Of a DNA stretch of 64,000 bases, positions 8,549-53,590 are shown in pieces. Origin of the DNA: Octopus vulgaris (taxonomy: Eukaryota); contig OX597815.1 of the NCBI GenBank assembly GCA_951406725.2, forward strand, positions 151,466,001 to 151,530,000, given 5' to 3'. The position numbers and the translations under genes are program-made. Numbering within the stretch: the first letter of the stretch is position 1; every line of letters starts with the position of its first letter. The notes below the pieces were generated by a model that saw only the letters and a program-made list of their open reading frames with translations, was not told where the DNA came from and did not search any database.

Positions 8549-8696
8549 TGTGTCGATACTATTTTAGTGAGTAAAGGAATGGAGCCATAACTGTTTTGTA
8601 CATTTAAAAAATCTAAATATGGATGTAATTTATTAACTTACTAGCTTATATGTTGATTTTCACAGTTGTTTCATTTTCTTTTTCTATAGCTCCAAG

Positions 8697-9558
8697 ATGG
8701 TTGGGAAAAGGCGTAGGCAGTCAACCATTCCTATGGTTAAACAAGAGGCTAATGCTATCTTGGAAGAGTTCTTGATGAGGCATCAGGAAAGCCTCACATC
8801 TATTACTCCTATGAACTCAGTTTACCAAAAAGTTTCAGAACTCGAAGTGTTTGAAGAGAAACCAAATTTCAAGCGCCGAGCCAGTTACAGAAAAGCATCA
8901 CATGAATCCATTCTAAGTGATGACAGTTTCCATTCAATGACAAAAACTGAAATTACTTATGAAAATACTGCTCCTCTTGCAAGCGATGAGGAATGTAGTT
9001 CGAGTATTGAGTCACCATCATCAGCTCCTGGCTTTCTTTGTAATTCTTCTAAACTTCGGCATTCTTCGAGTAATTCGTCGTCGTCTAGCTCTGATAATGA
9101 TTCAAGAGTACGTCGTAAAAAGAGCCTGTTTAAACGGGCAAAAGAACGACTGAGAATGTCGTTTAACATATCGAGAAAGTTTAAAAAAATTCAAGCCGAA
9201 AAGGAAGCGAACAATGACAATGTTTTTATAAAGAAGAAAGATAAGAAAAAGAAGAAGAAGGTCAAGACAAAAGATAAAGTACTGAAAGAAGTGACAACCT
9301 ATACAAGGACGCACATTCGTCAATCGTCTACAATATCAGATATTCCTTGCCAAAAAACTGAGATTACCCTTCGTGAAGGGGAAATCTGGGAGTCAAAGAA
9401 AATAAAAGAGAAGAATGGTGAGTCACGTCATATTGAATCTCATCTTAGCATTAAGGAAAGTTCAGACAATTCAGGTTCTAAAGGACTGCCATCATCTCTT
9501 AACAAATTAAAATCACTTCACAGAAATGGGAAGAAAACCCTCTCTCTTGGGAGAAAAG
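8697..9558 (+). CDS. Bcl-2-family protein (Bcl-G/Bcl2L12/Bfk-like), large N-terminal coding exon
   Basis: 287-codon non-repetitive ORF. Acceptor TTTTCTTTTTCTATAG ends at 8689, donor AG|GTTAGT at 9559, phase 1. VKQEANAILEEFLMRH resembles a BH4/alpha1 helix and is followed by Ser-rich and Lys-rich low-complexity sequence. Confidence 0.85.
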
Positions 9559-12500
9559 GTTAGTTTTATTTTATTATCTCACTTTTATCAATTATAGATA
9601 TATTTTATATAAATCTGTTTCTTTAATCATGACGAGTTCTGAAGAAATGGCCTGTGTCCAAGGCCTTCATAGGCTTCCCATAACCCCTGACATGTATGCA
9701 GTACTTGAACAATTGTAACTCCTCCCCTCCTTGTCTGCAGGAAGAACATGGGTGAGGAAAATATTTTAGAGTGGTGGCATTCTGGGTGGAGTATAGACAC
9801 AGTGTGGATGATGATAAGAGAAGATCAGATGAAACCAAAACTTGTATTCTTATTTATAGTTCTTTTTTTTTTCCATGTAAATATTTGTTACCAAACCCTG
9901 AAAAGTTTAAATGAAAACTTGCAAAATAAGAAGTTGGAGCTAATTTGTTGCACTTCTGAATAAGAAATGTCTGATTTTCTCAGTAAAAAAGTATGTTTTA
10001 AGTGCTGTACATATGTATCTATTTCTCCAATATGTATATTGAGAAAAAATGTACATATTGGTGAGACAACTGATAAACCTGTGCTTTCAAACAAAAATAC
10101 CTTGTGTTTATTTCAACTGAGTTGCACTGTCACTCCTGATATCAGATTAGCCTGTTAAAATATTACCAATGATGCTATCTACTGTTTACAAATTGCGTGA
10201 TATAAAACTATAAGTCATAGTGGCAGTTTACAGAATATGTTGTGCTTGGTTACATAAAAATGTGTTTGTTTTCTGTTTAAATCAACACCATTTCTTTTAT
10301 TTGGTCATTGATACTTTACAGATTTGTGATTTAGTTGATAAATATTATGTATGAAAATATATTTTGTCATATTAAATCCTAAATTTAATGAGAAACTCTG
10401 TGTTCCTAATTGTTTTCCATTTTGCTCTAAATTTACCTAAACTTTAGAAAATAGAACCGAAATTGTAATTATTCAGTTTGTAGGCAGTTTTGCCTCCATT
10501 AAATTTTGAGTTTAAATTCAAAATTCTTTTACAATAATGACTAAATGTTTTTCACATATAACATTTATTTATTTACCAATTCCAAAATCCAATGATGTAA
10601 AAATATCTTAAATTGAAGGAAGCAGATTTGGGATTTAACCTAAGATTATTTTAGCCATATAATGTTTTCATATTTGAAGTTAAAAATTTTAGCACATCCT
10701 TTAAATTCATTGACAGAATCTATGCTTATCAATAACTATTTCTATTAACAAGCTTACGAAAAAAAATGTTTATGGAAATGCTGTATATTGTTTAACAAAG
10801 TTTGATGTCTATTTGTAACATTGTCAAAGACCGTATTTATTATTACGTTACTTGTAATTATAAAATGCACTATTCATATAAATACTATAATTAATTCTTA
10901 ATGATCTTTACTTTTACCAAATTCACAAAATTTGGAAGCATTTGTTTTTTGTCACTTGAGTAAATGAAATATGTCTTCATTAGAAATAAAATAAACAATC
11001 CTAATTGAGCATTTCTCTAAATTTTGTAAATATGGTCTTCTTGTTTCTGTTCCCCAGTAACCATTTTTCACGTGTTTTGGTTATAATATGCAGTGTGTAT
11101 ATGTATATATATATATATATATATATGTATATGTATATATAGACATATTTGTGTTTGTGCGTATATTAATGTATGTATGTATGTATATCTTATATATGTA
11201 TATACATACACACACCCTGTAAAGTAGTGTCATTTCTTAGATTGAGATTTAACTGCACAAAAATTATTGTTGTTACACACAAATCACCTTGTTGGAATGT
11301 GACTGGAAATACATAGTGCTACAAAAAAAAAAAAAAGAAAACATCTTCTGGAACCAATGTTAGGGATTAGTCCACATTACTCCGTAAGGAGCATAGGGCC
11401 AGTTTCCCAGTTTCTCATTATAATATATTCCTTGAATAATATTATAAATCTATTTAAATCATCTAAGGATAGTGGAGGGATTACTGTAATGGCATAATAG
11501 TAACTTTTGTCTTGTTTTCCTTTATAAATACAACACTTCCCACAAACACTTTACATAGACCCATTTGTAAGCGGTCAAAGTTAGCTGTCCTTCATAAACA
11601 CAAGACTGTTTGAGCCAGTGAAAGAATTTCTTCAAAGTGGCTCAACATACCGGAATAGCAACCAAATGTCCCTTATTACACCTTACCCACCATCTTTAAA
11701 ATAAGAAATGTAAAAACACATTGCAGAACAATGTAGTCTTAGACATTCAAAAAAAAAAGGAATGCTCATGGCTGGAATGCCTTTGCTCATTGGTTTGTTC
11801 AGTCAGGGTTGACTTGATGCTAAATGGCAATAAAGACTACTGCAACTATTGTTATGTCTGGCTTCATTACCACCAATACTATTGAGTCAACATATAACCT
11901 TCAGCACGGCTAGAAATAACTGTCAAATCTCTGAATTTCTGTCAGCCAAATCACACCTACAAAATCAGAAGAATAAAAAATTATTGGATGATTGTGATTA
12001 GAAATACTGATTATTCATCTGTCCAATCAGGTCAGAATTTGGAACAAACAGCAGCAGTAACAACATTAAAGCATATTTTATCTCCAGTTACTCCGTGGTT
12101 GAAATTCCAATCCATCAATAATAAATGCTGTGTAAACTTTTACACAGTCATTTAAATAATTTATTCACAATTCATGACACCTGTTTGTTTTTTTTAATTT
12201 AGACACTTAACTATGTTCGTAAAATGTCAGCCAATTTAAAGGAAGAGTCAAAGAGAATCATAGGTCAAGTTTTTGACTGTCATTCAATAATTATTTTAAA
12301 GAGTAGTTTTCAATAAATCATGAAACTTAATTCATTTACAGTAGTCCTGCTTCTGTTAAATTACTTTGGAATAAATATTTTAATCTACTTTTTCACATAC
12401 AAAAATATCTGTGACAAAATTCCTGTTTCATCTTAGTTCTATAGTACCACTCCTATTTTTGAAACAGGGCAGTACTGTATGTAGTATATGCATTTCTCTA

Positions 12501-13174
12501 ACCCCAACAAGGTGCAGTTTTGATACACAGCAACACTGATCTGACACTTGGGCATTATGTGTAAAGTATGTTGTTAGATCTGACGTGTTTCTGGCTGGCT
12601 GGCTGGGTAGATGAATGGGATGGATAACCTTTACAAAGTATATCAGATTAAAGAGAACCAGGCACATTAAAACATTCTATGTGCTAAAAATGACATTACA
12701 AATAGGATGCCCTTATATAAATATTTATATTTGTCTGCGTGTGTGTATATAAGCATATGTGTATGCGTTTCATGTTTAAATTCAGAAAGTAATTATTCTA
12801 TATTATAAATGATAATGAGAATATTGATATAACTTATCCATTTAATCAAGAAAATAAATTGGATGCATTCCTATGCTACCTGTTGTATTAGCTATATTAC
12901 TGTGCTACCTGTTGCATTAATATATCAAAAGAGGCCTAAATAATAAGCACAAGCACACATGCTTCTTTTTTTTCAAATGAAATTTATTCTATTGACATGC
13001 AAGATTTTGACAAACATGTTTACACATATGCATTTATAATGTTATATACTCTTTCACTACTAAATTCTCTGCATTGAACATCTAACAATTAAATGAAAAA
13101 GCTCAACCACTAGTACTACTACAACAACAACAACTACCACTATTACTACCACCATATTTTTATTGATTGAACAG

Positions 13175-13564
13175 AAAGCACTGAGCAGAGGAATATTGTT
13201 CAAAACATCCATCACCGAACAGCATCTGAAGGCAATGATAAAGCTATACACGTAATCAAAGAAGAAAGTAAAGATAATAAAGATAGCACTACAACAAATG
13301 TTCTCAATGAGATTATAGCATTAGACAATGACGCTGAGAATGACTATCCACTTATTGAGACTTCAGCTCCACGAAACAATTTGCATCTGAACATTAATCC
13401 AGTTTTTACCAGTGAGCTTCCAGATCGAGGAAATTTTGAATTTAAGGCTGAACACGTAGAGAAAGTAACAACTGTTTGTACACCAGATGGTCTGACTCAA
13501 CGCAGATCATCTGTTGAGCATTATGAGCATCTCAGTGACTGTGATAATACTGAAGTTAATAATG
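13175..13564 (+). CDS. Bcl-2-family gene, internal exon (ESTEQRNIVQ...DNTEVNN)
   Basis: Acceptor ...TTGAACAG at 13174, donor G|GTAAGT at 13565. 390 nt, phase 1-1, open throughout and in frame with the flanking exons. Confidence 0.8.
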
Positions 13565-14270
13565 GTAAGTTATCGTCCAGGAAGTATTTCAAGCTAAAAT
13601 TTTCTTTATCGAAAATCATTGGAAGCTTACAAACTTTCCATATTAAAAAAAAAAAAAAATAGAAAAAGAAAAAAAAGCGTCTTGCTTACAAGTACTACAA
13701 GAGCATGATGACCTCTTTAAAGATTGTTCTTTCAGGGCTTACAGTTAGTTAAGTGAAAATAATAACACAATATATATATATGTCTTAATTTTTACTTTCT
13801 TTTAAATTTAATTCTTAACTGCTAAACATTACATAGATCATAACAAAGGCCATATAAATAAATGTAAGCCTCTATTATGACCTATGGAAATGGAATACTA
13901 AAAATTCTCTGCTTCTTGCTTGATTTCAACTTATTATCATTTTAATATTTAAGTTTCTCATACTTTGCATGAATATATTTGTATCTGTATGTATGTATGT
14001 ATATATATATGTATGTATGTATATATATATATATGTATATATATATGTAGATATGCATACATATTTTGTATTCTCTTACTGCTCTGTCTAATGTACTTTT
14101 TTGGAAAACTGTTGAAATATTTTTGATACTGTTGGGTTATTTAAAAGCACATGCACACTTGCAATTCCTCACTACAACACATATTTATGATCTGTTATGA
14201 ATTATGCAGCATGCATGTGTATATAGATGTATATATACATATGCTTTTGAATAAACTCTGAACTAATCTC

Positions 14271-14494
14271 TTACCCCTTTAGCATTGATTACTCTGTCAA
14301 TATGTAATGCTTATTTATTCACAATATTTTGGATTAATCATGCATTAATCTTGTAGCTTCAAACTTCCAATGATGTGATTATTTTTAGAATGACATTGTA
14401 AGGTAGGTTTGAGAGGCCAGATCTAGCCAATTTGAAAAGAAAATAGGTAAAATGTTTGGCCCTGATATGACAAGTTTAAATGCTAAAGGGTCAA
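14271..14494. mobile_element. piggyBac-like MITE (related copy at about 56430-56632 in the opposite orientation)
   Basis: CCCTTTAGCATT and AATGCTAAAGGG termini. The internal sequence is shared with 56430-56632. Confidence 0.6.
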
Positions 14495-15219
14495 ATCAGT
14501 AAAAATAAAACATTTTTAAAATATCAAAATTAAGTGAACCCTATGTGTCTTGTTCACGCAATTGCTTTATCAAACCCTAGCTTGTCCCACATACTATGGG
14601 CCTGGCTATCTCTGAAAACACTAGTTCAGATTAAATGACTTGATAGTATCATGAATATTTCTACATCTCAGCTTCTGTTTCTGTGTCTTTCTCAAACTAA
14701 AATAATGTATTTTATGTACTCACTCATCACTCATTGCCTTCATCAGTACTACGCAACTGGTAAATGGGTTTTTTTTATTCTTATAGTTAAGCTATTTATA
14801 TTTTTTGTTGCACCTCTCATATATGTTGTCGTTGTCTTTATTAACTTACTAGTTTATTGGCAAGTAATATATAAAGGTGGTGGTTTGACACAACCATGTA
14901 CAATCACAAAGGACAAAATGTTTTGAATGCTTTGCAGTATTTAGTCACAAAATTTTATGTTCTTATTTTGAGTACTTTTCAGTTTGAGTTTGTCTTTTGT
15001 CCTTCTGGGTTTAATGAAGTTAATGAACACACTAAATTGACTGTAAGGACTTTTGCGTTTTGTTTAAAATCAGTGAAGAAATAAAGTCCAACTTTCTATG
15101 AATGAAGTCTATGAGTTGATTTTAATCCCAAAGTAATGGTGAATAAATTCCATATGTCATTGTTCTCAGAGAAAGGCATGAACATCACACAATCATTTTT
15201 TTCTTTATTATATTGACAG

Positions 15220-15345
15220 TTAAAATATTTAGTTTCGGCCAAGATAGCAGCATACCAACTGATCCAGTTTGATGTCTCACTATTAGTTCATCTGTTGTTG
15301 CCAATGGTGACCAAGGACATCACATGGAGAAGAGTACAGGTCATG
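15220..15345 (+). other. Candidate 126-nt symmetric cassette exon with an in-frame TGA at 15270-15272
   Basis: Strong acceptor (TTTTTTTCTTTATTATATTGACAG) and donor (ATG|GTATGT). Phase 1-1 like its neighbours. Reads VKIFSFGQDSSIPTDPV*CLTISSSVVANGDQGHHMEKSTGH. Confidence 0.5.
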
Positions 15346-16590
15346 GTATGTCTGGCTGTGGCCAATTAGTCCAATGTGTGCTTAGGCTCTACAGCAGATC
15401 AGGCACTGGTAGCCTGCTGCGACTGAAGGCAAGGAATTGGCTCTGAACTTGCACACTTTAAATTTTCTAATTCCTTCCCCACAGAATTGTTTGCTTTTTT
15501 GACCAAATCAGAAGCAATTATTTTATTAGATTAGCAGAATTGTTACAGTATTAAATCATCATCATCATCATGTAACGTCTGTTTCCCATGCTGGTTGAAT
15601 GGTTTAACAGGAGCTGCACCATTTTCCATAGTCTGTCTTGGCTTGGTTTCTACAGTTGGATGCCCTTCCTAACACCAGCCACTTTGTGGAGTATACTGGA
15701 TGCTTTTTACATGGCATCAGCACATACTAACATTATCAGTTCACTCTCACCTAGATAACTTTGCGTTTCATCCTCTCGAGGTTGATAAAATAAAATATCA
15801 ATCAAGTACTGGGATTAATTTAATTGACTAAGCCTCTCCTAAATTTCAGCTCTTTGCTTATGTTAGAAACAATTATTTTATTACATGTTATTGTTTCAAA
15901 CACAGGTCTATTGCCTAACTGAAGAGGAGTGGTAGTTGTGATGTTCATGCTCTTTCTAACGTAATAGTGATGTAAGTGAAGTGAAATGGATTCAAGTGAA
16001 ATTTCATTTCTGACTTGGTTTGTCAAGAAATTATCAAACAATAATTGTTTTATTTTAAGCTCTGACGATTTCTGTACTGATAAGATAGCATAGAGTGTAC
16101 AAATCAGTTTATTAGGTAAGTGGTGGGGAACAAATGTGTGATTTTTGAGATAACAGAGAAATGGTGTGAGAGAGGTGAGGATAGATATGTTTACTGGCTT
16201 GTATTTGCTGTCATTTTAGATTTTCTACATCAAAATTACCAGAGATCAATACAAAAGTTATGATAGTGATATGTTACAAACTTGTTGAAAGGTTTTCCAA
16301 AACTAAGTCGTAAACTTATATTTTTAAATCTACACAAATATAAAATGAGTCCCTTGCTGGTCAGAAAATTACTTTGAGGGAGGAAATGAGTAGGTTTGGC
16401 ATCAATGTTTTCCCTTTGTTTAAAATGTAACAGTTCCTTTTGAGAACAACAAAATATGCTGCCCACAATTGATTGGCATTGACATTAATAACCAAAACCA
16501 CAGCAATCACTGCATGGCTGCATTTCAGTCACAGAAAGCAGTAAAAGAATAATAAAGTCTAGATATCACAAATATATATATATATATATA

Positions 16591-17126
16591 CAGGGTGGCT
16601 CAAAAGTAGGTTTACAGTAGGCACTTTAAATCTCTTTTAAAACATTTTATTACATTTAAATTTCTATCTTTCAATCATATTGTTTATGCACATCTTAAAC
16701 AGACAATGTTTAATCTCTCAGATGCTCAAAATGTCCTCCTTCATAGCAACATTCTTCAAACCTCTTCAGAACACTCTGACACACAGTGCAGCACAAATTC
16801 TGATCTCCATCAATTTCAGTGAATGCGTCAGAAATGTAATCTTTTAATTCATTTACTGTTTTGGGATTCTTCTTATAAACCTTGTTCTTTACAACACCCC
16901 AAAAAAGAAATCCATTAGTGTCAGGTCAGATTCTGCCCCATCTTCCAAACTAACACTGTGGAAAGGCTTCGTTAAGGTAGTCTCTTACTGTCAATGCATA
17001 ATGTGGCGGTGCTCCATCTTGCTGAATAATGGTTTCATATTGTTTTATAATTAAGATCTAAACTATTAATATATGAATGTGAAAGAGATAGTTAAATAAC
17101 TGTAAACCTACTTTTGGGTCACCCTG
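16591..17126 (-). mobile_element. Internally deleted Tc1/mariner transposon (intronic)
   Basis: 28-bp TIRs CAGGGTGGCTCAAAAGTAGGTTTACAGT and ACTGTAAACCTACTTTTGGGTCACCCTG with TA flanks. Minus-strand QQDGAPPH...DLTLMDFFFWGVVKNKVY...GGHFEHL. Confidence 0.9.
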
Positions 17127-17958
17127 TATATATATTTTGTTCCTCAGCACTGCTTGGCAACTGGTGTCGGTGTGTTTACATCCTCGTAAGTTAGCAGTTT
17201 GGCCAAAGAAACCAATAAAATAAGTACCAGACTTTAAAAATATGTGTACTGGAGTAAATTCATTCAACTAAAATCCTTCAAGGCAGTGCCCCAGCATGGC
17301 CACAGCCTGATATATATTGCATAAGTATTGAAGTACTCAATACATGCTTGTGGTAAAATTGGTTATTGTTTCACATCATTTTGCTGAGGTTTGTTGATAT
17401 ATATTTAGGTATCTCAGTGAAAACTTGTTTTAGTTTTAATTGTATAATCTCTCTCTCACACACATACACGCCAGTGGACTGGCATGACTTAGATGAAATA
17501 CCTTGCAGTGATACTGGTGCCAAGGTGTAGGACTCTCACCTTCTATGGGACACTATTTGGCATGTAATGGGGTATCCTGCATGTATGGCCAGTTGCTCAT
17601 CCTCCTCGAAAATACTTGCCCTGGTTTGTTGTTTGGAAGAGTTTTACAGGTTGAGATACTCAGACTTTCTATAAAAAACAAAATGGCATAGATGATATAT
17701 ATATATATATATATGTGTATATGTATGTATGTATGTGAAGACACATGGCTGAGTGGTTAGAGCATTGAGCTTACAATCATGAGGTTGTGAGTTCAATTCC
17801 TGGACCAGGCTGCATCTTGTGTTGTATCTATACATATACATATTGCTCAAATTATGTAAATAGTGAATGATGTGGGGTGTTTGTTTTAGTGTATTTTATG
17901 TTAAAAACCCAATAAATTTTACTAAATGTATTTTCCCCATTTTTCTTGTTATAAACAG

Positions 17959-18126
17959 ATGAATTTGATGAAGTTGATGGTGCTGTCGGCGGCGTTATGT
18001 CTTCTGAACCTAGCGAAGACCAATCGAAAACTGATATGTTTAAACGAGTGGCTGATAAACTGATGAATCTCGCTGATACACAGACATCAGCATCTGATTC
18101 AGAAGGTGCCTGTGCTAGAATCCAAT
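17959..18126 (+). CDS. Bcl-2-family gene, exon with DEVD|G and BH3-like motif (VADKLMNLAD)
   Basis: Acceptor ...ATAAACAG at 17958, donor T|GTAATT at 18127 (an alternative same-phase donor at 18106 is possible). Phase 1-1, with an LxxLAD BH3 core. Confidence 0.85.
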
Positions 18127-18587
18127 GTAATTATTATCTCTACTTTCTTCTCAGTTCAAGTTCTTACGTTCTGGCACAAGCAATTAATTTGATTATGATT
18201 AGTAATCTGTTTATGTTACATTCAAAGTAAATTACACAAAATTTTAATGCATCTGTTTCATGTTACATCTGTTTCATGTTACATTCGTTGTTAATTTATA
18301 TTGTGAAAAACAAAACTCAATCAATATGATTACAATTTTTTTTTATTGAACTTATTAACATCAAATTTGAATAAAAAACTTATTTAACTCTAATATATGC
18401 CTATGCATGCACAACTTGCATTTCCATCTCAAATATTTAAACTTCTAAAAGTTTATTAAATGTGTACCTCAGTTACTATATTTGATCATTAACTACTTTC
18501 TAAGAGTTTCTTTTCTAAAAATTCACAGTAAAGATATTAAAGTACAATTATTATTGTTTTTATTATTATTGCTGTTGTTGTTATTGC

Positions 18588-18635
<48 letters not shown>

Positions 18636-18660
18636 GATCATCATCATCATCATTATTAAT

Positions 18661-19140
18661 GGTGGCAGTGTGCTGGCAGAATTGTTAGCACTCTGGGAAA
18701 AATGTTTAGCAGCATTTTGTCTGTCTTTACGTTCTGAGTTCAAATTCTGGTGAGAGCAATTTTGCCTTTCATCCTCCTGGGATCAGTAAAATAAATACCA
18801 GCTGAGTACTCTGGCTGATGTAATCGACTATCCCCTTCCCCCGAATATCAGACCTTGTACCTGAAAGGAAGAAAGGATTATTACTATTACTAAGGCTGTG
18901 AACTGGCAGAATCATTAGCACACCAGGCAAAATGCTTAGTGGTATACATCTGTCTTTATGTTCTGAGTTCAAATTCTGCTGAGGCCAACTTTGCCTCTCA
19001 TCCTTTTTGGGTCGATGAAATGAGTACCAGTTATGTACTGGAGTCAACAAATAAAGTAGCAGCCAAGTACTTGAATCAGTGATATCAACTAACTCCGTCC
19101 TTAAAAAATTGCTAGCCATGTGCCAAAATTTGAAACAATT
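18661..19140 (+). mobile_element. Two tandem family-A SINEs (intronic)
   Basis: Same consensus as 26795-28835, preceded by (ATT)n. Confidence 0.85.
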
Positions 19141-19256
19141 ATTATTATTGTGACAGCATTAAAAATATTAATAATAATAATAGCAATAATAATAATAATA
19201 GTGATGATAAGGATAAACATGGATGAAATTATATACAAATTACAATTATTTTACAG

Positions 19257-19318
19257 CACCAGAACTGAGTGAATTAGAGAAAGAACTTGTGGAATACATT
19301 CTTTCTATAAAAACCTCT
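19257..19318 (+). CDS. Bcl-2-family gene, short exon (SPELSELEKELVEYILSIKTS)
   Basis: Acceptor TTATTTTACAG at 19256, donor GTAAGT at 19319. Its phase 1-0 is exactly what is needed to join the flanking exons. Confidence 0.85.
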
Positions 19319-20737
19319 GTAAGTTGTGTTCTACCCTAATTAAAAATCTAAATATTAACCATTTTAAATATGAAAAGTAAATGATTTATAATTCATTATA
19401 AAAATGTTAATTTAAAGCTAAAAATTCATTGAAATTCAGTAGGTCGCTAATATTTTGATATAAAACAGGCACAATTTTCTGTATCTTTCAACCTTGTTTT
19501 ATGTCTGCTTTCGATGCTGGTATGGGTTGCTCTCCTTAATGGATCAGGTGACTGCATCTTGCTTATAAGTTTCACTTTTGGCTTGGTTTCCAAACAGCAC
19601 CCACTTTGCAGAGTGTATGGGGCATGCATTTTATTGTGACCCCTGCATTAGAAAGGCTTTAGTGTTTTTGACAAAACAAAGGGGTCCTTCCAGCCCTATA
19701 CTTAACTGAGTGTACTAGGTGCAATTTTATTGTGACACCAGCACACAAGGGTGAGAGAGTGATGAATTGTAAGAGATGGATACATGGTGGGAGTGGATGA
19801 TGGATATTGATACCAAATGGCCAGGGTATAGAAAATTTAGGTAGTGTTTGAGATATATACAAATCTGATGAGGTTGTTTAAGTTGGAGATAAAAATTTAA
19901 CAAGTCCAACAGAATCCCTCGTGATACTGGATGCAATATGTAGTGAACGTAAGAGATTCACTGCTATCCTTAGTCACATTGGTAGCATAGTACAATGAGA
20001 ATGAGAAGAGAGATGGGCTGTTGGAGTATGAGTGTTAGAGGTAATAGTGATAATGTTATGGGCAATAGAGACTGGGTGATAGTGGCATGAATGAGAGTCA
20101 AAGGAGTGATTAAAGGAATGTGTGTGCATCATGGCTCTGTGGTTAAGAAGCTTGTTTCCCAACCACATGGTTTCAGGTTCAGTCCCACTGTATTATACAT
20201 TGAGCTATTATCTTGTACGATAATTCTGGGCTGTGCAAAGTTTTTTCAGTGAATTTCATTCACAGAAACTGAAAAGAAGCCTGGTGTGCATGCGCATGTA
20301 TGTGTGTGTGTTTTTGACATTGTGTCATAGTTGTAAAATAAGTGTCACTGTCACCCAAACAGTGCCCTTCATTTCCAATTTTCTACGTAGACATGTCTGG
20401 GAAATATATGACTTAAAAACTGGTAAAGGTTTGTGACAGGAAGGGCATACGGCTGTAGAAAATCTGTTTCAACAAATTCTCTCCGCCCCATGTAAGCATG
20501 AGAAAGTGGAAACTAAAAACCTACAAAAGTTATTGTTTTATGTCCAGCTCTGAAATGCATTAAATGTCTATGCCTATGTGAATGTCTGTTGTGCTATAAA
20601 AGCATAATAAATTCTACATTTTATTCATTGATATACCAGTTGTTACAGCTGTAAATTATAAAAAGAAAAAAATTGAAGAAAGAAGCAAAGATAATGAAAT
20701 ACACTGTCATTCCACTGATATTATATATATTTGTATA

Positions 20738-21105
20738 GGTGCCGGAGTGGCTGTGTGGTAAGTAGCTTGCTTACCAGCCACATGGTTCCGGGTTCAGTCC
20801 CACTGCATGGCACCTTGGGCAAGTGTCTTCTACTATAGCCTCGGGCTGACTAAAGCCTTGTCAGTGGATTTGGTGGATGGAAACTGTAAGAAGCCCATAT
20901 ATATATGTGTGTGTGTGTGTCTGTATTTGTCCCCCACCATCGCTTGACAACCAATGGTGGTGTGTCTATGTCCCTGTAAATTAGTGGTTCGGCAAAAGAG
21001 ACCAATAGAATAAGTATTAGGCTTACAAAGAATAAGTCCTGCGGTTGATTTGTTTGACTAAAGGCAGTGCTCCAGCATGGCCGCAGTCAAATGACTGAAA
21101 CAAAT
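20738..21105 (+). mobile_element. tRNA-derived SINE family B (CORE-like CCTTGGGCAAGTG block)
   Basis: GGAGTGGCTGTGTGGTAAG...GGTTCAGTCCC head. Other copies at about 20130-20520, 34355-34745(-), 40170-40335(-), 45335-45722, 52270-52665(-) and 56790-57245(-). Confidence 0.85.
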
Positions 21106-21245
21106 AGAATATATACACACATATACTAAACTGCTTAGTTATTAGAACTTGAATTCTTTTTACTTTTTATGCTGTTTATTTTTAATTTAGAATTTACTTT
21201 TAAGAAAAAAAGAAATTATAAAAAGTGAAATATATTGTTTTTCAG

Positions 21246-21494
21246 AGTCAGTTCCCAAGTGAAGCTGTCATAGACATACTTAAACAACTTACCTATCAGA
21301 ATTTCAAAGAGACTTTTGAAGCATACTCTAAAGACAAGAGTGGCTTACAAGAGGTGGCAGCTCTCTTCTTCCTTTCCAAGGCAGCTATCAACCTTGTTGG
21401 ACCTTTTCGTGCAATGGCTTCCCAGATAAAAGAACTAACTCTGCGATACTTTGAGGATAAGTGTGCAGCATTCATTGTGGAGAAAGGTGGTTGG
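21246..21494 (+). CDS. Bcl-2-family gene, exon with degenerate BH1 and BH2 (...RYFEDKCAAFIVEKGGW)
   Basis: Acceptor TTTTTCAG at 21245. Donor TGG|GTACGT at 21495 is a phase-0 intron directly after GGW, the conserved Bcl-2-family intron position. LTYQNFKETF resembles Bcl-G LSYSVFKTI. Confidence 0.9.
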
Positions 21495-21589
21495 GTACGT
21501 ATGTTTAATCTTTGTTAGAATATTTTAAAGATATTTGACATTTTCACCTCATAAATATCATTTTATCATGACGATGTTTGATAAGGGGA

Positions 21590-21810
21590 GGACTGGACTT
21601 GATGGGGGTGCTGGGGTTGGAGGAATCAGTGAAATGGCTGACAAGGGCTAATGGAGTGTGGTGGTATGGGCATGTGTTGAGGAGGGGTGAGGAGAATGTT
21701 CTGAAGAGGGTGCTAGAGTTTTAGGTAAATGGACAGCAAAAGCTAGGTAGACTAGGAAAAATGTGGAGGGAACAGGTGGAGGAGGAGATTGGGAGCGGTG
21801 ATGTCGATGT
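21590..21810 (+). mobile_element. RTE LINE C-terminal fragment (intronic)
   Basis: Translates as WYGHVLRRGEENVLKRVLEF...GRLGKMWREQVEEE. Confidence 0.7.
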
Positions 21811-23054
21811 TATCAACTATTGCCCTCCCTGTAATTGCTGGCCTCTTGCCAAAATTTGCAATCAGTACAAATTGCCATGGTACATAGCCATGTGGTTAGA
21901 GTGTTGCACTCACAGTTGCAAGACCATGGTTTCAATTCTCATACTGGGTGGTACGTTGTGTTCTCGAGTAAAACACTTCATTCAACATTGCCCCAGCCCA
22001 CTCAACAGTAGATGAGTAATGTTGTGATCCCAGCCACTTATCACCATGGAAGCCAGGTGTCTGACCCTATGAGTCCTTGGGGACTTGGGATAGTAAATAT
22101 CCAGAGATTAACAAGTACGGTGATATTAATATCCTTTTTACATTCTGAGAGAAAATACTGCTTTCTGTTTTTGATTTTTTTGGTGTCATAAAGAGCAATA
22201 AAATATGTACCCGTCAAATTAGTTGACTTGTACTGTCCTAAAATATATGACTATATACCAATGTTAAAAGTCACTATTTTATAATTATGAAACACAATAG
22301 ATTGTTCAAAACTGGAATATTATATTAAACACAACATCGTATTTTATTTTTGACTTCCATCCCTCCTGGGTCAGTAAAATAGATGAGTATTTCTCACATG
22401 TTGATGATTGATTCAGTTAATTATTGTTGCAAGTCACATTTATTGCTCTTCCCCTTTTCTACCACTCAAATGTGAATCAGGCAAATTGAATATGACAGAA
22501 TTATTTCATGTACCATGCCAAGAGGTACATGTTATCTTTAGTAATATAATTTGATTTTGACTTGCTTGATGAAATGTTTATTTCACCAAGCGATATATTT
22601 ATTTGATAAACATTAGATATGCTTTGCCCCCTACAGAAACTGTGGGAGTTACTCAGAAATGTTGCAAGCTCTTCTTTTGAATCTATTGCAATGTTGAAAA
22701 CTCTTCCATATAATCAGCAGGGATTTCAGGGTCACAAGTGTTTTGCCCTTTAGCTTATATGCTTCACCTGAATGTGGCAGCACGGACTGAATTAGTCTTC
22801 ACTTGCAGGAGGGTTCCACCTGTGGTTTCTTATCAACCACAACCACCTCAAGCTGGTTTCAATTGTTATGCCTATCTCCTTAGTGGCTTTCTTCAGTTGT
22901 TCGGGCTTCAGACCAGGCTTCTGCAGGAAAAAGTGCACCAACCTTTTTCCTGCAGTAACTGACTTCAATAGGGGATGGATTAGTAGTTTAGTTCTTGGAC
23001 CATGCATCTGTTTTTATTTATTTATTTATTTATTTACTTATTTTCTTCCTACAG

Positions 23055-23099
23055 GATTCCGTTCTTGAAGACACAGATGAAGAACCTAAAGGAGAGTGA
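23055..23099 (+). CDS. Bcl-2-family gene, last coding exon (DSVLEDTDEEPKGE*)
   Basis: Acceptor TTTTCTTCCTACAG at 23054. Completes BH2 as GGWDSV, with stop TGA at 23097-23099. The six exons total 1776 nt, or 591 aa plus stop. Confidence 0.88.
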   Translation, partial: DSVLEDTDEEPKGE

Positions 23100-38034: not shown

Positions 38035-38144
<110 letters not shown>

Positions 38145-38276
38145 GTATATATTTTTTTACCAAAATGCATTGCGAATAAGCCCGCCATTTTCATAGATAT
38201 GTAAAGATAAACATTCGTACATGCTGTGGCGAATTCTACGGTTGGCTGTCGGGTTTGTAATGTTGTGTTTTTTCTT

Positions 38277-38353
38277 GAGTTTGTTGCACTGATGAGCATA
38301 GAATGCATATTCTGCATTGATTGCGAAATCACAGGTGATATGTAACTAAATTC
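38277..38353 (+). ncRNA. Type I hammerhead ribozyme, complete
   Basis: Stem I GAGTTT-GTTGCA / TGTAAC-t-AAATTC. Core CTGATGA 38289-38295. Stem II GCA...TGC. GAAA 38325-38328. Stem III ATCAC-ag-GTGAT. Cleavage triplet AUA, predicted cut after 38340. Confidence 0.8.
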
Positions 38354-38482
38354 TGTTTTTAAATGACTTGCTTTGAAGTTTTGCATTCGGTACAATTTGT
38401 TTATTTTAGTAGTTTTGACTGCAAGAGTCCCTCCTAGCGTGCGGTACCTATGAATAATAGTACCCTCTATATAATATAAATA

Positions 38483-38516
<34 letters not shown>

Positions 38517-38521
<5 letters not shown>

Positions 38522-38841
38522 AAACACTGCATCCTTCAAAACTTCGATGCTTCCTGATATTTGCCAACAGTACACCTGATGCCTTTTTTTATGTAGGGCA
38601 CCTGAGCACTGTTTGCAACAATTTCATTATTACAATTGTAAATATATATATCATCATCATCATCATCGTCGAAAACGGACGCTAAACAACGATGATGATG
38701 ATGATGATATATATATTTACAATTGTAATAATGAAATTGTTGCAAACAGTGCTCAGGTGCCCTACATAAAAAAAGGCATCAGGTGTACTGTTGGCAAATA
38801 TCAGGAAGCATCGAAGTTTTGAAGGATGCAGTGTTTCAACA
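38517..38841. repeat. Inverted repeat, 153-bp arms with a 19-nt loop
   Basis: 38517-38669 is the reverse complement of 38689-38841. No mismatch seen by eye. Confidence 0.92.
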
Positions 38842-39690
38842 GCTAACAACTGATGCAAATAGTTTATTTCATGCTTCAACAATTCTGTGCATGAAATAAA
38901 TGTTTCTGAAAGTCGTAGGTTTTATATTGTTTTTTGATATTGTAAGCATATCCATGAGTGTTAGACATATGGAATTGAAAAAGGTGCCTGAGGTTGTTGT
39001 TGGAAAGATGATGAATAATTTTGTTGATGTCTACCAGGTCTGTGGTCAGATGTCAGAGCTTTAATTTGTCCATGCCCAGAGAAGCAATATGTTCAGAATA
39101 TGGTAGATGCCTGATGGCAGGTATTTGTCTGGTTGCACATTTCTAAACAGCTTCCAGGATATTGATATGCTGAGCAAGTTAGGGGTTCCAGACTGGTAAT
39201 GTAAATTCTAAGTGTAGATGTACCAGAGCCAGATACAGTTTTAAGTAGATGGAGATTAGTTGACAAAGGTCTTACTGAATGATGCTAAGACACCCTCAGC
39301 CTTCTTGATAATCTTAGAGATGTGGTTTGTTCACTGAAGATCGCTGTTTACAATTTATACCCAGGTCATGTTCACTAACAAACTTCTTAAGACTGATGTG
39401 GTTAAAGGAGTATGTAAAAACAGCATTTTTTCTTCCTGATGTGCATGGTGACGTACTTGACTGCAGTCAATTTTAGTTGCCAGTTACTTATTCATTGCTG
39501 CATTGTGTCCAGGTTTGATTGTAGAAAAGATCTATAGAATATAGGATCTGTTCTTTTTATCTAAAGGTACAGCTTGTTGTCATCTGCACATTTCAACACT
39601 GTAACATCCTTCAAGTTGGCATCAATATCATTAATGTATGCAACAAACAGCTGGGGTCCAAGAACGGATCCCTGTGGTACACCAGATGTC
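38700..39690 (-). mobile_element. CR1/L2-type LINE 3' fragment (decayed RT)
   Basis: SGVPQGSVLGPQLFVAYINDI and (F/C)ADDNKLY at 39561-39690. Decayed downstream RT-like sequence. Confidence 0.8.
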
Positions 39691-40078
39691 ATATGTGTGT
39701 ACACATAGACGCACACACACACGCTCATGTGCACGCACACACACACACATACACACTGGTCTTACTTCTGTCACCCTCAGACATCTAGGTACCACCAGCT
39801 TACTGTCTAGCAACATGGTCAAAGAAACCCCTTTCTAAAGGAACTGTTATTGCTGAGCAACTGATATTCTTGGACAATACAATATGATCTGCCTTGACCA
39901 GTAGCAGCCTACTTCTAGTATCTTTCCATTGGGTAATCTAAAACCTTAAAGAGACAGGCTTCTGTTAGAGACCTGCAAAACTTTAAGTTGCTTGGAACCT
40001 AATCAAACTGTTTTAAATAATGTATATAAATTTTATATACATGTATGCATATATATGCATCTATAATATATATATATA

Positions 40079-40651: not shown

Positions 40652-40838
40652 CACCGGCACAGGTATCACAACTACAATTTCCATTTGCTATTTATTTTGA
40701 TGTTGATGTACTTGACACAATAGGTCTCCTCAAGCACAGCAGGTCATCTACTTGATGTGCTTGAGGAGACCTATTGAGTCAAGTACATCAACTTCAAAAG
40801 GTCAAATGGAAATTGTAGTTGTGATACCTGTGCCAGTG
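40652..40838. repeat. Fold-back inverted repeat within the RTE 3' UTR
   Basis: 40652-40738 versus 40756-40838, imperfect. Confidence 0.8.
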
Positions 40839-41774: not shown

Positions 41775-44265
41775 TGGGTGCTTTTTACATGCCACCGACA
41801 CAGGGGCCAGAAGAGGCTGGCAAACGGCCACAATCGGTTGGTGCTTTTACATGTCACCAACACAGACACCAGTCAGGCGGTGCTGGCATCTGCCACGTTC
41901 AGATGATGCTTTTTACGTGTCACCGACATGGGTATCTTAACTACAATTTCCATTTGATTTTTATTTTGATGTTGGTGTTGATGTACTTGCTTAATAGGTC
42001 TCCTCAAGAACAGCGGGTACTCTATGATCCAAGGTTAGCACAGCAGGCCGTCCTGTGAGCCATGAACTTACTTCATTTGTTGGGTTTTCACAGTCACAGC
42101 ATATCCGAGAGGTCTTGGTCTTCATCATTTCCTCTGTGAGGCCCCACTGGCACAGGTATCACAACTACAATATCCATTCGATTTTTATTTTGATGTTGAT
42201 GAACTTGACATAATAGGTCTCCTCAAGCACAGCAGGCTATCCTGCAAGCCATGAACTCACTTCATTTGTCAGGTCTTCGAAATCACAGCATATCTCCAGA
42301 GGTCTCGGTCTTTCATCATAGCCTCTGTGAGGCCCAATGTACGAAGGTCATGCTTGACCACCTTGTCCCATGTCTTCCTGGGTCTACCTCTACCCCTGAT
42401 TCCTTCAACAGTTTGGGAGTGGCACTTCTTCACACATCTCTCCTCACCCATCCGTAGTACATGACCACACCAAAGCAAACGTCTCTCCTGCATGCTGCAT
42501 CCGATGCTTCTTAAGTCCAACATTTCTCTCAGGGCGCTTATACTCTGTCATGCATAGACACTGACATTGCACATCCAGCGGATCATGCTAGCTTCATTTC
42601 TTTCAAGTCTACGTATGTCCTCTGCAGTCACAGCCTATGTTTCACTGCTGTGAAGCATGGCAGTTTGCACATGTGCATCATACAATCTACCTTTCACTCT
42701 GAGCGAGAGACCCTTTGTCGCCAGTAGGGGAAGAAGCTTTCTAAACTTTGCCCAGGCTATTTGTATTCTAGTGGTAACACACTCTGAGCATCCACCCCTG
42801 CTACTAACTTGGTCACCTAGGTGGCGGAAACTGTCAACTACTTCTAGTTTCTCCCCCAGGAGTGTAATGAAATCTGTTTTCCAAGTATCAATGGTGTCTA
42901 TTGCCCCTGTGCATCTGCTGCACACGAAAGCTACCTTCTAGGTTAATTTTCCTTTGATGTTACTGCACCTCTTATGTGTCCATAGCTTACACTGGGTACA
43001 TCTTATGGAGTTTCTACCAACACCTTTTCTACAGATCGAGCAGGGCCACCAACCTGAAGGGGTGTGTGGTGAGTTAGCCTTCCTACTTACTAGAACTCTG
43101 GTCTTTGCTACATTGACTCTAAGGCCTTTTGATTCTAAACCTAGCTTCCACACATGAAGTTTCTTCTCTAGTTCCAGTGGTGATTCTTCTATGAGGGCTA
43201 AGTCATCAGCATAGAGGAGATCCCAGGCGCAACCTGTTTTGAATTCCTCTGTTACTGCCTGGAGGACTATGATGAAAAAAGTGGGACTGATGGCTGAACC
43301 TTGGTGGACCCCTACTTCTACCCAGAATTCTTCACTATACTCGTTGCCAATCCTAACTTTGCTAATGGCCTCTCTGTATAGGACCTGTACAGCCCTAATT
43401 AACCATTTGTCAATCTCCAGTTTCCACATTGCCCACCAGATAAGGGATCAGGGGACCCTGTCAAAGGCTTTCTCTAAGTCCACAAAAGCTATGTATAGGG
43501 GTTTTACCTTTAGCTAGGTATTTCTCTTGCAGTTGCTGAACCAGGAATATGGCATCAGTGGTGCTTCTACCAGGCACAAAACTGAACTGCACCTTATCTA
43601 AGCACCATCTCTCCCTGATGAGATGGGCTATGACCCTCTCCGTGACCTTCATTACCTGATCCAGCAGTTTGATATCCCTGTAGTTATTTCTATCTAGAGC
43701 ATCACCTTTACCCTTGTAGCAGTTGACTATTTTGTTGCTATGCCAGTCGTTAGGTATGGCTCCATCATGAACTACCTAGTTTACAATGCAGGTGACTAAG
43801 CTGTATGCCCACACCACCAGATGTTTTAAGCATCTCAGCAGTGATTCCTGATGGGCCAGGGGCTTTTCCTGGTTTCATACCCTTAATTGCTTTATCTACT
43901 AGGGAGCTGTCTATTCGGATAGCTGGTTCCTCTACTGGATCAACATTTGGCAGGCTCTCCCCTCCCATTCATTCTCCACATTCAGCAGTCTTTCATAATG
44001 GCTTCTCCAAGCCTCTTTCTTTTCAGAATCATTAAAAGCAAGTGCACCATCATCCATTCAAACACATTTCTCTCCTATGACATCACAATTTTCTCTCACA
44101 CACTGTCTTGTAATCCAAAATACCTCAGTTCTTTGGTCCTCACGTCTCTGGACATTGGCAAACTTCTTTTCCGTTTCGCTCTTGGCTATGTATACCTGCT
44201 GCCCAGCCTCCCTCCTTCTGGCTACCTGGTACAGTTCCCTACTACCCCCATCCTTCCAATATATT
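41775..44265 (-). mobile_element. RTE-clade LINE, 5'-truncated and decayed (RT, embedded PHD-like finger, 3' UTR subrepeats)
   Basis: Motifs KAPGPSGITAEML, FVPGRSTTDAIF, GVHQGSAISP, LLYADDLALI, RRLLWCGHVLR and GRGRPRKTW, with stops and frameshifts. The 3' UTR resumes at 40335-40740 and ends in (GAT)n. Confidence 0.93.
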
Positions 44266-52752: not shown

Positions 52753-52804
52753 ATACAGTATGTGAGAGATGGGAGGACTGAAAGTTCAAATATTGGTGTG
52801 CATC

Positions 52805-53590
52805 TGTAGGTTTGTGGAAGAAATCTGTTTTTCAGGTGTTATTTTCTTTAATTAGAAGTATGTCTAAAAATGGTAATTCCTTTGTGTGTTGTTCGATGGC
52901 GAATTTTATTGAGGTATAAAAATTATTTAAAAGTGAGCGAAAGATTCCTAAGTCTTCTTGGTTTTTGGTCCAAAATATAAAGCAGTCATCCAAATATTGT
53001 TCCCAATTGTTTTTTTATATAAATGGAAAAATGTTTGTTAAATGTTTCTGTTAGTTGGGAATAGAGTTTGACCTCAAGGAAGCCTATTGCATAGGTGGAG
53101 GCTACTTTTGTACCTATCACCATTCCTTTTATCTGTAAGTAGAAGTTGTTGTCGAAGAAATGATTATTTTCCAGATTATTTTCCAGTAAAATGAAGGTTT
53201 TTGAGAATCTTTCCATGATATGATTTGGGTGTTTTGTTAAATAGAAATTTATAGCTTCACTTCCAAGTTTATGTGGGATATTGGTGTATAGACTATTTAT
53301 ATCGAAACTAATAAGAATTGTCTACTGGTGGACACTTTTAGGTATGTATTTCAAGAAGTTCATATCTATTAAGTTACTTAAGTGTTGTGTACTTGATGCT
53401 GGTCCTGCAATAATCGGGTATGGTGTCAGATCCCTGAGTTTAGGAATTTCAACATATGTTAAATTGTTTCCTTTTATGCTATCTTGGATTTCTTTCGATT
53501 TGTAGATCTTGGGTAAACCGTAGAAGTTACTGGTTTTTGCTACAAGGTTGGTTAAATAATTAACTTCATTTTCAGTTAGGTTATGATATT
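52805..53590 (-). mobile_element. Penelope-like element reverse transcriptase fragment (decayed)
   Basis: Minus-strand motifs FYGLPKIYK, PIIAGP, SFDINSLYTNIP, LENNHFFDNNFYLQIKGMVIGT, LPFLDI and TDFFHKPTD, with frameshifts. Confidence 0.9.

Follow-up and report, generated by a model that had tools for sequence, protein, structure and literature searches.

A 5′-truncated copy of a hammerhead-bearing repeat with the features of non-LTR retrozymes in a TA microsatellite of Octopus vulgaris

The 64,000-nucleotide stretch of Octopus vulgaris DNA analysed here (the window) carries a type I hammerhead motif at 38277–38353 on the + strand. The window is Octopus DNA, with six exons matching Octopus proteins at 90–100%. 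Six coding exons at 8679–23096, also on the + strand, belong to an uncharacterised Octopus gene whose product, about 606 aa long, weakly matches the Bcl-2 family at its C terminus; a location of the hammerhead in an intron of this gene is ruled out for the coding span, which ends with the last coding exon at 23096, 15 kb off. The TA tracts said to flank the motif are present at 38039–38152 and 38468–38517. The left one is a (TA)n/(CA)n microsatellite, the insertion target adjoining the truncated 5′ end of the repeat copy, and the right one comprises TA-rich sequence of the repeat itself (38468–38481) followed by (TA)n at 38482–38517. Directly after it lies a perfect 153-bp inverted repeat with a 19-nt spacer (38517–38841), which duplicates the end of a LINE remnant and, with no mismatch, looks either younger than the hammerhead-bearing copy or like an assembly fold-back. 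A broken LINE reverse-transcriptase remnant with the motif GVPQGSVLGP in its translation occupies about 38690–39900 on the − strand. Further along are a 50-bp inverted repeat (40695–40799, 92% complementary, 5-nt spacer) and, on the − strand at 42938–43447, a reverse-transcriptase fragment followed by a cysteine-rich finger, which we take to come from a likely RTE-type LINE.

The motif contains the consensus elements CUGANGA, GAAA and UH, has three helices and is open at helix I. Stem I is formed by 38277–38288 and 38341–38353 (12 pairs, two of them G-U, and one bulge). The core CUGAUGA at 38289–38295 has U as N7, where most subfamily A copies have A. Stem II (38296–38324) consists of the GCA/UGC closure, an internal loop and an inner stem of 38302–38307 with 38313–38318. 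GAAA starts at 38325, and with the stem III palindrome AUCAC-AG-GUGAU (38328–38339) it fills 38325–38339. UH is U38339–A38340, within the triplet AUA, and the hammerhead consensus places the cleavage site at 38340/38341, after A38340. The intact core, stem I and the stem II closure are thus as originally described. A type I descriptor matched only at 38289 in the entire 64-kb window and gave 0 matches in 100 dinucleotide-shuffled windows; the motif is therefore real and not a chance match. The folding z-score of the isolated motif (−0.74) is uninformative. A search with the Rfam hammerhead models, which had been proposed as a check, returned no hammerhead at 38277–38353 at the gathering score, nor did the 30 matches with E≤10 include one; the models may not accommodate a stem II and stem III of this length.

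Two details of the fold need revision. The inner hairpin had been drawn as AGAAU/AUUCU around GCAU. This form is rejected on the strength of the minimum free energy structure, in which AAUGCA (38302–38307) pairs with UGCAUU (38313–38318), and of an alignment of 18 hand-picked motifs spanning the subfamilies (alignment A1), in which 83.7% of stem II cells pair with AAUGCA/UGCAUU vs 64.2% with AGAAU/AUUCU. Stem III had been taken as five base pairs, AUCAC/GUGAU, within one molecule; this leaves a loop of two nucleotides (AG), too short for closure. A single molecule can form at most four stem III pairs, namely A15.1-U16.1 and three pairs on a CAGG loop.

The original prediction also suggested a genome search for copy number and stem covariation, and this was productive on both counts. 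Searching with 38155–38467 returned 2,226 candidates, of which 40 were scored; 39 besides the window copy aligned at 93–96%. Most copies extend upstream into sequence missing from the window. The full repeat is a 492-nt unit arranged head to tail, with up to 2.7 units per arm. Hundreds of copies are present: exact matches to a 3′-end 24-mer number at least 321 and to a stem III 22-mer at least 333 (control 0 for each), and a 15-mer common to the subfamilies has at least 1,023 (control 1), all three counts being lower bounds. The interval 38155–38470, described as a CpG-retaining island, represents the 5′-truncated end of this unit. The copy spans 38154–38481 on the + strand, comprises unit positions 173–492 followed by 14 TA-rich letters that begin another unit, and is 94.7% identical to the unit at L009:1501–1992; the predicted cleavage site corresponds to unit position 365. 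Two or more intact hammerheads in tandem occur at loci L009, L014, L015 and L020, and at L147 in subfamily C.

The sister units of subfamily B (500 nt) and subfamily C (459 nt) are 73% and 63% alike to the window copy, and intermediates exist beside them. The unit has a GC content of 32% and contains no open reading frame, and none of the arms ran into one. An older, more distant family E (L249, L262–L281) has a period of about 375 nt and copies 71–85% alike; it shares the stem III arms of subfamilies A–C and otherwise bears little likeness to them. At L011, a two-armed subfamily C insertion adjoins a subfamily A copy within one TA tract. At about 3234 of L105, on the − strand, lies a further partial tandem that carries a hammerhead; its stem III is again palindromic but of another sequence.

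The window copy had been called young. Compared with the majority sequence of 32 copies it has 10 differences in 311 sites (3.2%), against a median of 2.9% for the others, and a sister subfamily is 90–99% alike; the copy is thus of average age. The claim of a CpG-retaining island of about 310 bp holds in that the copy has 10 CpG dinucleotides with an observed/expected ratio of 0.94 vs 0.41 for the window. However, 7.7% of 313-nt tiles contain as many CpGs; the family majority has 13, and the enrichment is only mild. In a comparison aimed at a rolling-circle origin, tandem neighbours are on average 95.1% alike (8 arms) vs 97.2% for copies at different loci (28 pairs), both over 90 nt, giving no sign of recent local duplication.

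Stems I and II covary across subfamilies while the core is fixed save for N7, H17 and a few single changes. In alignment A1, 86.4% of hammerhead cells pair, and 11 of 26 pairs have changed on both sides (66 cells vs 24±5 in shuffled alignments); slid controls drop to 28–38% paired. Stem III is invariant there, a constancy that is built in, since 13 of the 18 rows were found by a stem III 15-mer. An alignment of ten whole units supports 87 pairs in 12 helices with 94.3% of cells paired. Twenty-eight of these pairs changed on both sides vs 15.7±2.4 in shuffles, 17 of them outside the hammerhead; the structures counted were derived from these same alignments, which leans the figures towards pairing, and kin share changes. 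Circular folds of units A, B and C gave z-scores of −4.0, −2.9 and −5.0 (40 shuffles each). Long-range helices close the whole unit on itself. The 3′ strand of one conserved helix is present in the window copy at 38435–38441 (+ strand), its partner at unit positions 66–72 being absent, and a conserved hairpin at 38443–38464 (+ strand; helix 12, 98.8% paired, two pairs changed on both sides) lies just 5′ of the first 3′ end. These patterns point to selection on the RNA structure, in the hammerhead and in the rest of the unit.

The ends of the copies record how they were inserted. Seventy loci were taken from the first 100 of the 321 listed 3′-end matches, and 11 were dropped as repeated loci or segmental duplicates, leaving 98 arms in 59 loci; the set was selected on the 24-mer, which all carry, and the extent of each arm beyond it was free. 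Arm 3′ ends fell at unit positions 484–492 (48 arms), at 110–126 (44) or elsewhere (6), so that 92 of 98 lie at two fixed TA-rich sites. Both sites consist of the element's own TA-rich letters merging into the target tract, and 79 of the 92 arms have TA-rich 3′ flanks. In the window copy the first 3′ end is at 38468–38481 (+ strand), likely a priming microhomology with the target. The 5′ ends are scattered and the median arm length is 186 nt. At 34 of the 59 loci arms occur in both orientations and meet at their truncated 5′ ends. The cleavage site is passed by 38 of the 46 arms that reach it, and one arm in 98 starts exactly there. No pile-up of 5′ ends was found at the site (9 of 98 lie no more than 10 nt from it, and 8 fall in the adjoining 21 nt). 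Because arms read through the cleavage site and almost never start at it, the template for insertion is a circle or an uncut tandem RNA rather than a cut linear monomer.

Penelope-like elements (PLEs) leave the same marks: an inverted 5′-truncated copy, an optional tail and a preference for (TA)n (PMC8557442), where the tail spans the distance from one internal start site to the other and uncut RNA is the main template (PMC11167929). The octopus copies combine 5′ truncation, an inverted partner, two 3′ ends and a (TA)n target. They further resemble Neptune/Nematis-type PLEs (PMC8557442, PMC11167929) in their partial tandems, in an optional tail between two internal starts with the hammerhead upstream of both, and in read-through of the cut site. 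They differ in having no open reading frame and in a tail of about 110–124 nt (140 in subfamily C) instead of 30–40 nt. Both octopus starts lie in target-like TA-rich sequence, whereas the start of the anole PLE is unlike the DNA that is cleaved (PMC11167929).

By its sequence the octopus unit also has the features of metazoan non-LTR retrozymes (PMC7229834): it is short, non-coding and arranged in tandem, has one type I hammerhead per unit and GC below 50%, shows no LTR, PBS or PPT, and forms a highly self-paired predicted circle in a host genome that holds PLEs; the mollusc example there is the mussel. Relative to those elements the octopus unit is longer (459–500 nt vs about 170–400), its copies are dispersed within (TA)n as insertions of 0.1–2.7 units rather than long arrays, and its stem III is a 12-nt palindrome. 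The two fixed 3′ ends and two-armed copies were not found described in the sections of that paper on which this comparison rests. The window copy is a sub-unit fragment of such an element.

We consider that 38154–38481 is probably a 5′-truncated copy of a non-LTR retrozyme, likely pasted into a TA microsatellite by a Penelope-like reverse transcriptase and endonuclease, with a ribozyme predicted to cut best as a dimer. The evidence supports the expected Penelope/retrozyme-type insertion in a narrower form: a non-autonomous retrozyme of 492 nt rather than a coding element's terminal repeat. In the scheme we favour, read-through transcription of a tandem locus would yield an RNA with two hammerheads, whose palindromic stems III would pair; both would cut after AUA and free a 492-nt monomer. 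A host ligase could close this monomer to a circle, by analogy with mussel, coral and axolotl retrozymes, and in the circle the lone hammerhead is predicted to misfold and so to be spared. A Neptune/Nematis-type protein would nick (TA)n and prime DNA synthesis inside the RNA at either of the two TA-rich sites, about 110–120 nt apart, that the copy ends reveal, often on both strands, with 5′-truncated, two-armed or more-than-unit insertions as the outcome. The window copy was primed at the first site and stopped after about 330 nt. Because it has a single hammerhead and is missing unit positions 15–172, it is most likely a dead end, and it is probably inert.

As to how the ribozyme cuts, we lean modestly towards a dimer preference. 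For the window monomer the hammerhead fold has a predicted probability of 4e-4, the core being paired with the 5′ arm of stem III, and the value was at most 0.0025 in all 13 monomers folded. Cofolding two copies gave −47.6 kcal/mol vs 2 × −20.4 for the monomers, with a double hammerhead formed through the stem III palindrome; among 11 representatives, eight cofolded as a clean double hammerhead, one was distorted and two did not form it. The folding model omits tertiary contacts and Mg2+ and is not calibrated on hammerheads that cut as monomers. At loci selected independently of stem III, 64 of 75 motifs retain both of its 5-nt arms with a 1–2-nt spacer, a retention that is in large part shared descent.

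The same retrozyme might instead carry a hammerhead that cuts well as a monomer, using the four-pair stem III on CAGG with stem I–II contacts rescuing the fold. We hold this to be a serious contender, at somewhat below even odds. Dependence on a partner is not obvious, because stem III could form four pairs alone. That is more than in coral, mussel and axolotl motifs with monomer activity (kobs of about 0.8 and 0.1 per min; PMC7229834). When constrained, the monomer fold lies just 4 kcal/mol above the minimum, and the conserved internal loop of stem II could dock. A review states efficient monomer cutting for the majority of invertebrate type I motifs (PMC7761336), published ones with a shorter stem III do cut in this way (PMC7229834, PMC7761336), and 8 of 9 predicted dimers did not cut in a 2026 preprint (10.64898/2026.07.22.740005). 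Against efficient monomer cutting, copies of subfamily B and family E frequently have just one A or G as the spacer, so that the inner C and G need a second molecule to pair with, and the mean unpaired probability of the core is 0.28 vs 0.66 for 200 random palindromes, 4% of which are as low. The dimer reading has a parallel in newt and axolotl dimeric hammerheads and PLE minimal hammerheads, whose palindromic helix III likewise lengthens on pairing (PMC4209133); those have 0–2 helix III pairs, whereas the octopus motif could form four alone and ten as a dimer.

A wider and more tentative proposal, which we regard as possible and rather doubtful, is that of a cephalopod retrozyme superfamily with a hammerhead switch. 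Stem III would mask the core in a monomer (off) and pair with a second copy in tandem (on), and the circles would be copied by Neptune/Nematis-type enzymes from two target-like starts flanking a conserved structured domain. If true, the switch would be one answer to how animal retrozyme circles avoid cutting themselves, a question raised in PMC7229834, and nature would have supplied a compact substrate for target-primed synthesis of the Penelope type on a circular template.

It is also conceivable that the hammerhead persists as a conserved fold for which cutting has become unnecessary: copying would proceed on uncut tandem RNA, and the motif would bind protein or cut only with a protein's aid. 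The read-through of the cut site and the missing pile-up of 5′ ends are compatible with this, and the ribozyme of the anole PLE needed protein and was dispensable for insertion (PMC11167929). We judge it unlikely, as the core letters have stayed fixed while the stems turned over between subfamilies 63–76% alike, and what variation there is falls at tolerant positions (N7, H17), a pattern that suggests selection on catalysis.

Slightly less probable still is that the copies are 5′-truncated pLTRs of an undetected autonomous PLE, the tandem unit being its pLTR and nothing more. The insertion marks are identical to those of PLEs, and 24 of 57 Xenopus retrozyme families match PLE termini (10.64898/2026.07.22.740005). 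At L196, a decayed PLE endonuclease region lies about 450 nt upstream of a related copy on the same strand, and 150 of 6,136 GIY-YIG candidates were scored. On the other side, in subfamilies A, B and C an arm extending beyond unit position 1 always runs on into position 492 of a further unit, the long-range helices close the unit on itself, and L196 is interrupted by a (CTT)n tract, an arrangement not seen in other loci. No autonomous parent was found in 50 GIY-YIG loci or in the 18 loci of a second family, which gave just short AT-rich matches or separate insertions, such as the retrozyme copies at L068, L105, L259 and L293. Likewise, no reverse transcriptase plus GIY-YIG reading frame joined to the hammerhead-bearing repeat was found among the examined arms and autonomous-family loci, and the 9.9-kb stretch around L249 gave no match in the protein search. 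An exapted, host-useful ribozyme at this locus, suggested by an intact motif on the strand of the upstream gene, is very improbable given that most subfamily A motifs in the sample (30 of 35) are just as intact, the copy is average in divergence and the coding part of the gene ends 15 kb away.

The non-autonomous retrozyme thus remains our preferred reading, and it fits the proposal that retrozymes are non-autonomous Penelope derivatives (10.64898/2026.07.22.740005). The octopus family is of the same class as the animal PLE-derived retrozymes described there, with the same proposed partner; their consensus lengths are 51–972 bp, and monomer copies are seen as dead offspring. The link there is pLTR homology, which was not found at the octopus loci examined, where the link is the insertion signature. 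That work surveyed 35 genomes, with no mollusc named in the part of its text cited here. An octopus retrozyme was not found in the literature searched; supplements and repeat libraries (Repbase/Dfam) may hold the family. In the main text of a repeat annotation of Octopus vulgaris, as available, 'ribozyme' and 'retrozyme' have 0 occurrences (PMC13282606). The class itself is already known, and the single copy in the window is ordinary. The interest lies in the family: covariation among its many diverged subfamilies backs a fold of the entire unit, and hundreds of insertion junctions show the mode of RNA copying, with two fixed starts and arms that read through the cut site. The genome also contains Penelope-type enzymes that are intact and have multiplied recently, which makes the PLE–retrozyme partnership and the idea of a hammerhead off in monomers and on in dimers testable with short constructs.

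The genome holds two intact families that encode reverse transcriptase with a C-terminal GIY-YIG domain and CX4CxxC, and in both the copies terminate within (TA)n at either of two AT-rich sites, spaced by about 30 nt. One (L294–L299; for example G000:C4:62139000-62146500) has a 454-aa ORF1 overlapping a 775-aa RT/GIY-YIG ORF2, and its protein is identical in 76 of 76 scored copies; this family is very young. The other (L091–L100) has two open reading frames of 479 and 781 aa and AT-rich ends about 33 nt apart. Neither shares sequence with the retrozyme unit, so the candidate mobilising enzyme, a Neptune/Nematis-type PLE protein, is proposed from insertion behaviour alone. Reading by eye, we noted in the repeat of the first family a minimal hammerhead-like motif, its stem III a palindrome of 6 nt, and a tentative U3-A8 hammerhead-like motif upstream in the second. 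The window itself contains a broken Penelope-like reverse-transcriptase remnant on the − strand at 52757–53588, 41–53% identical to the intact families.
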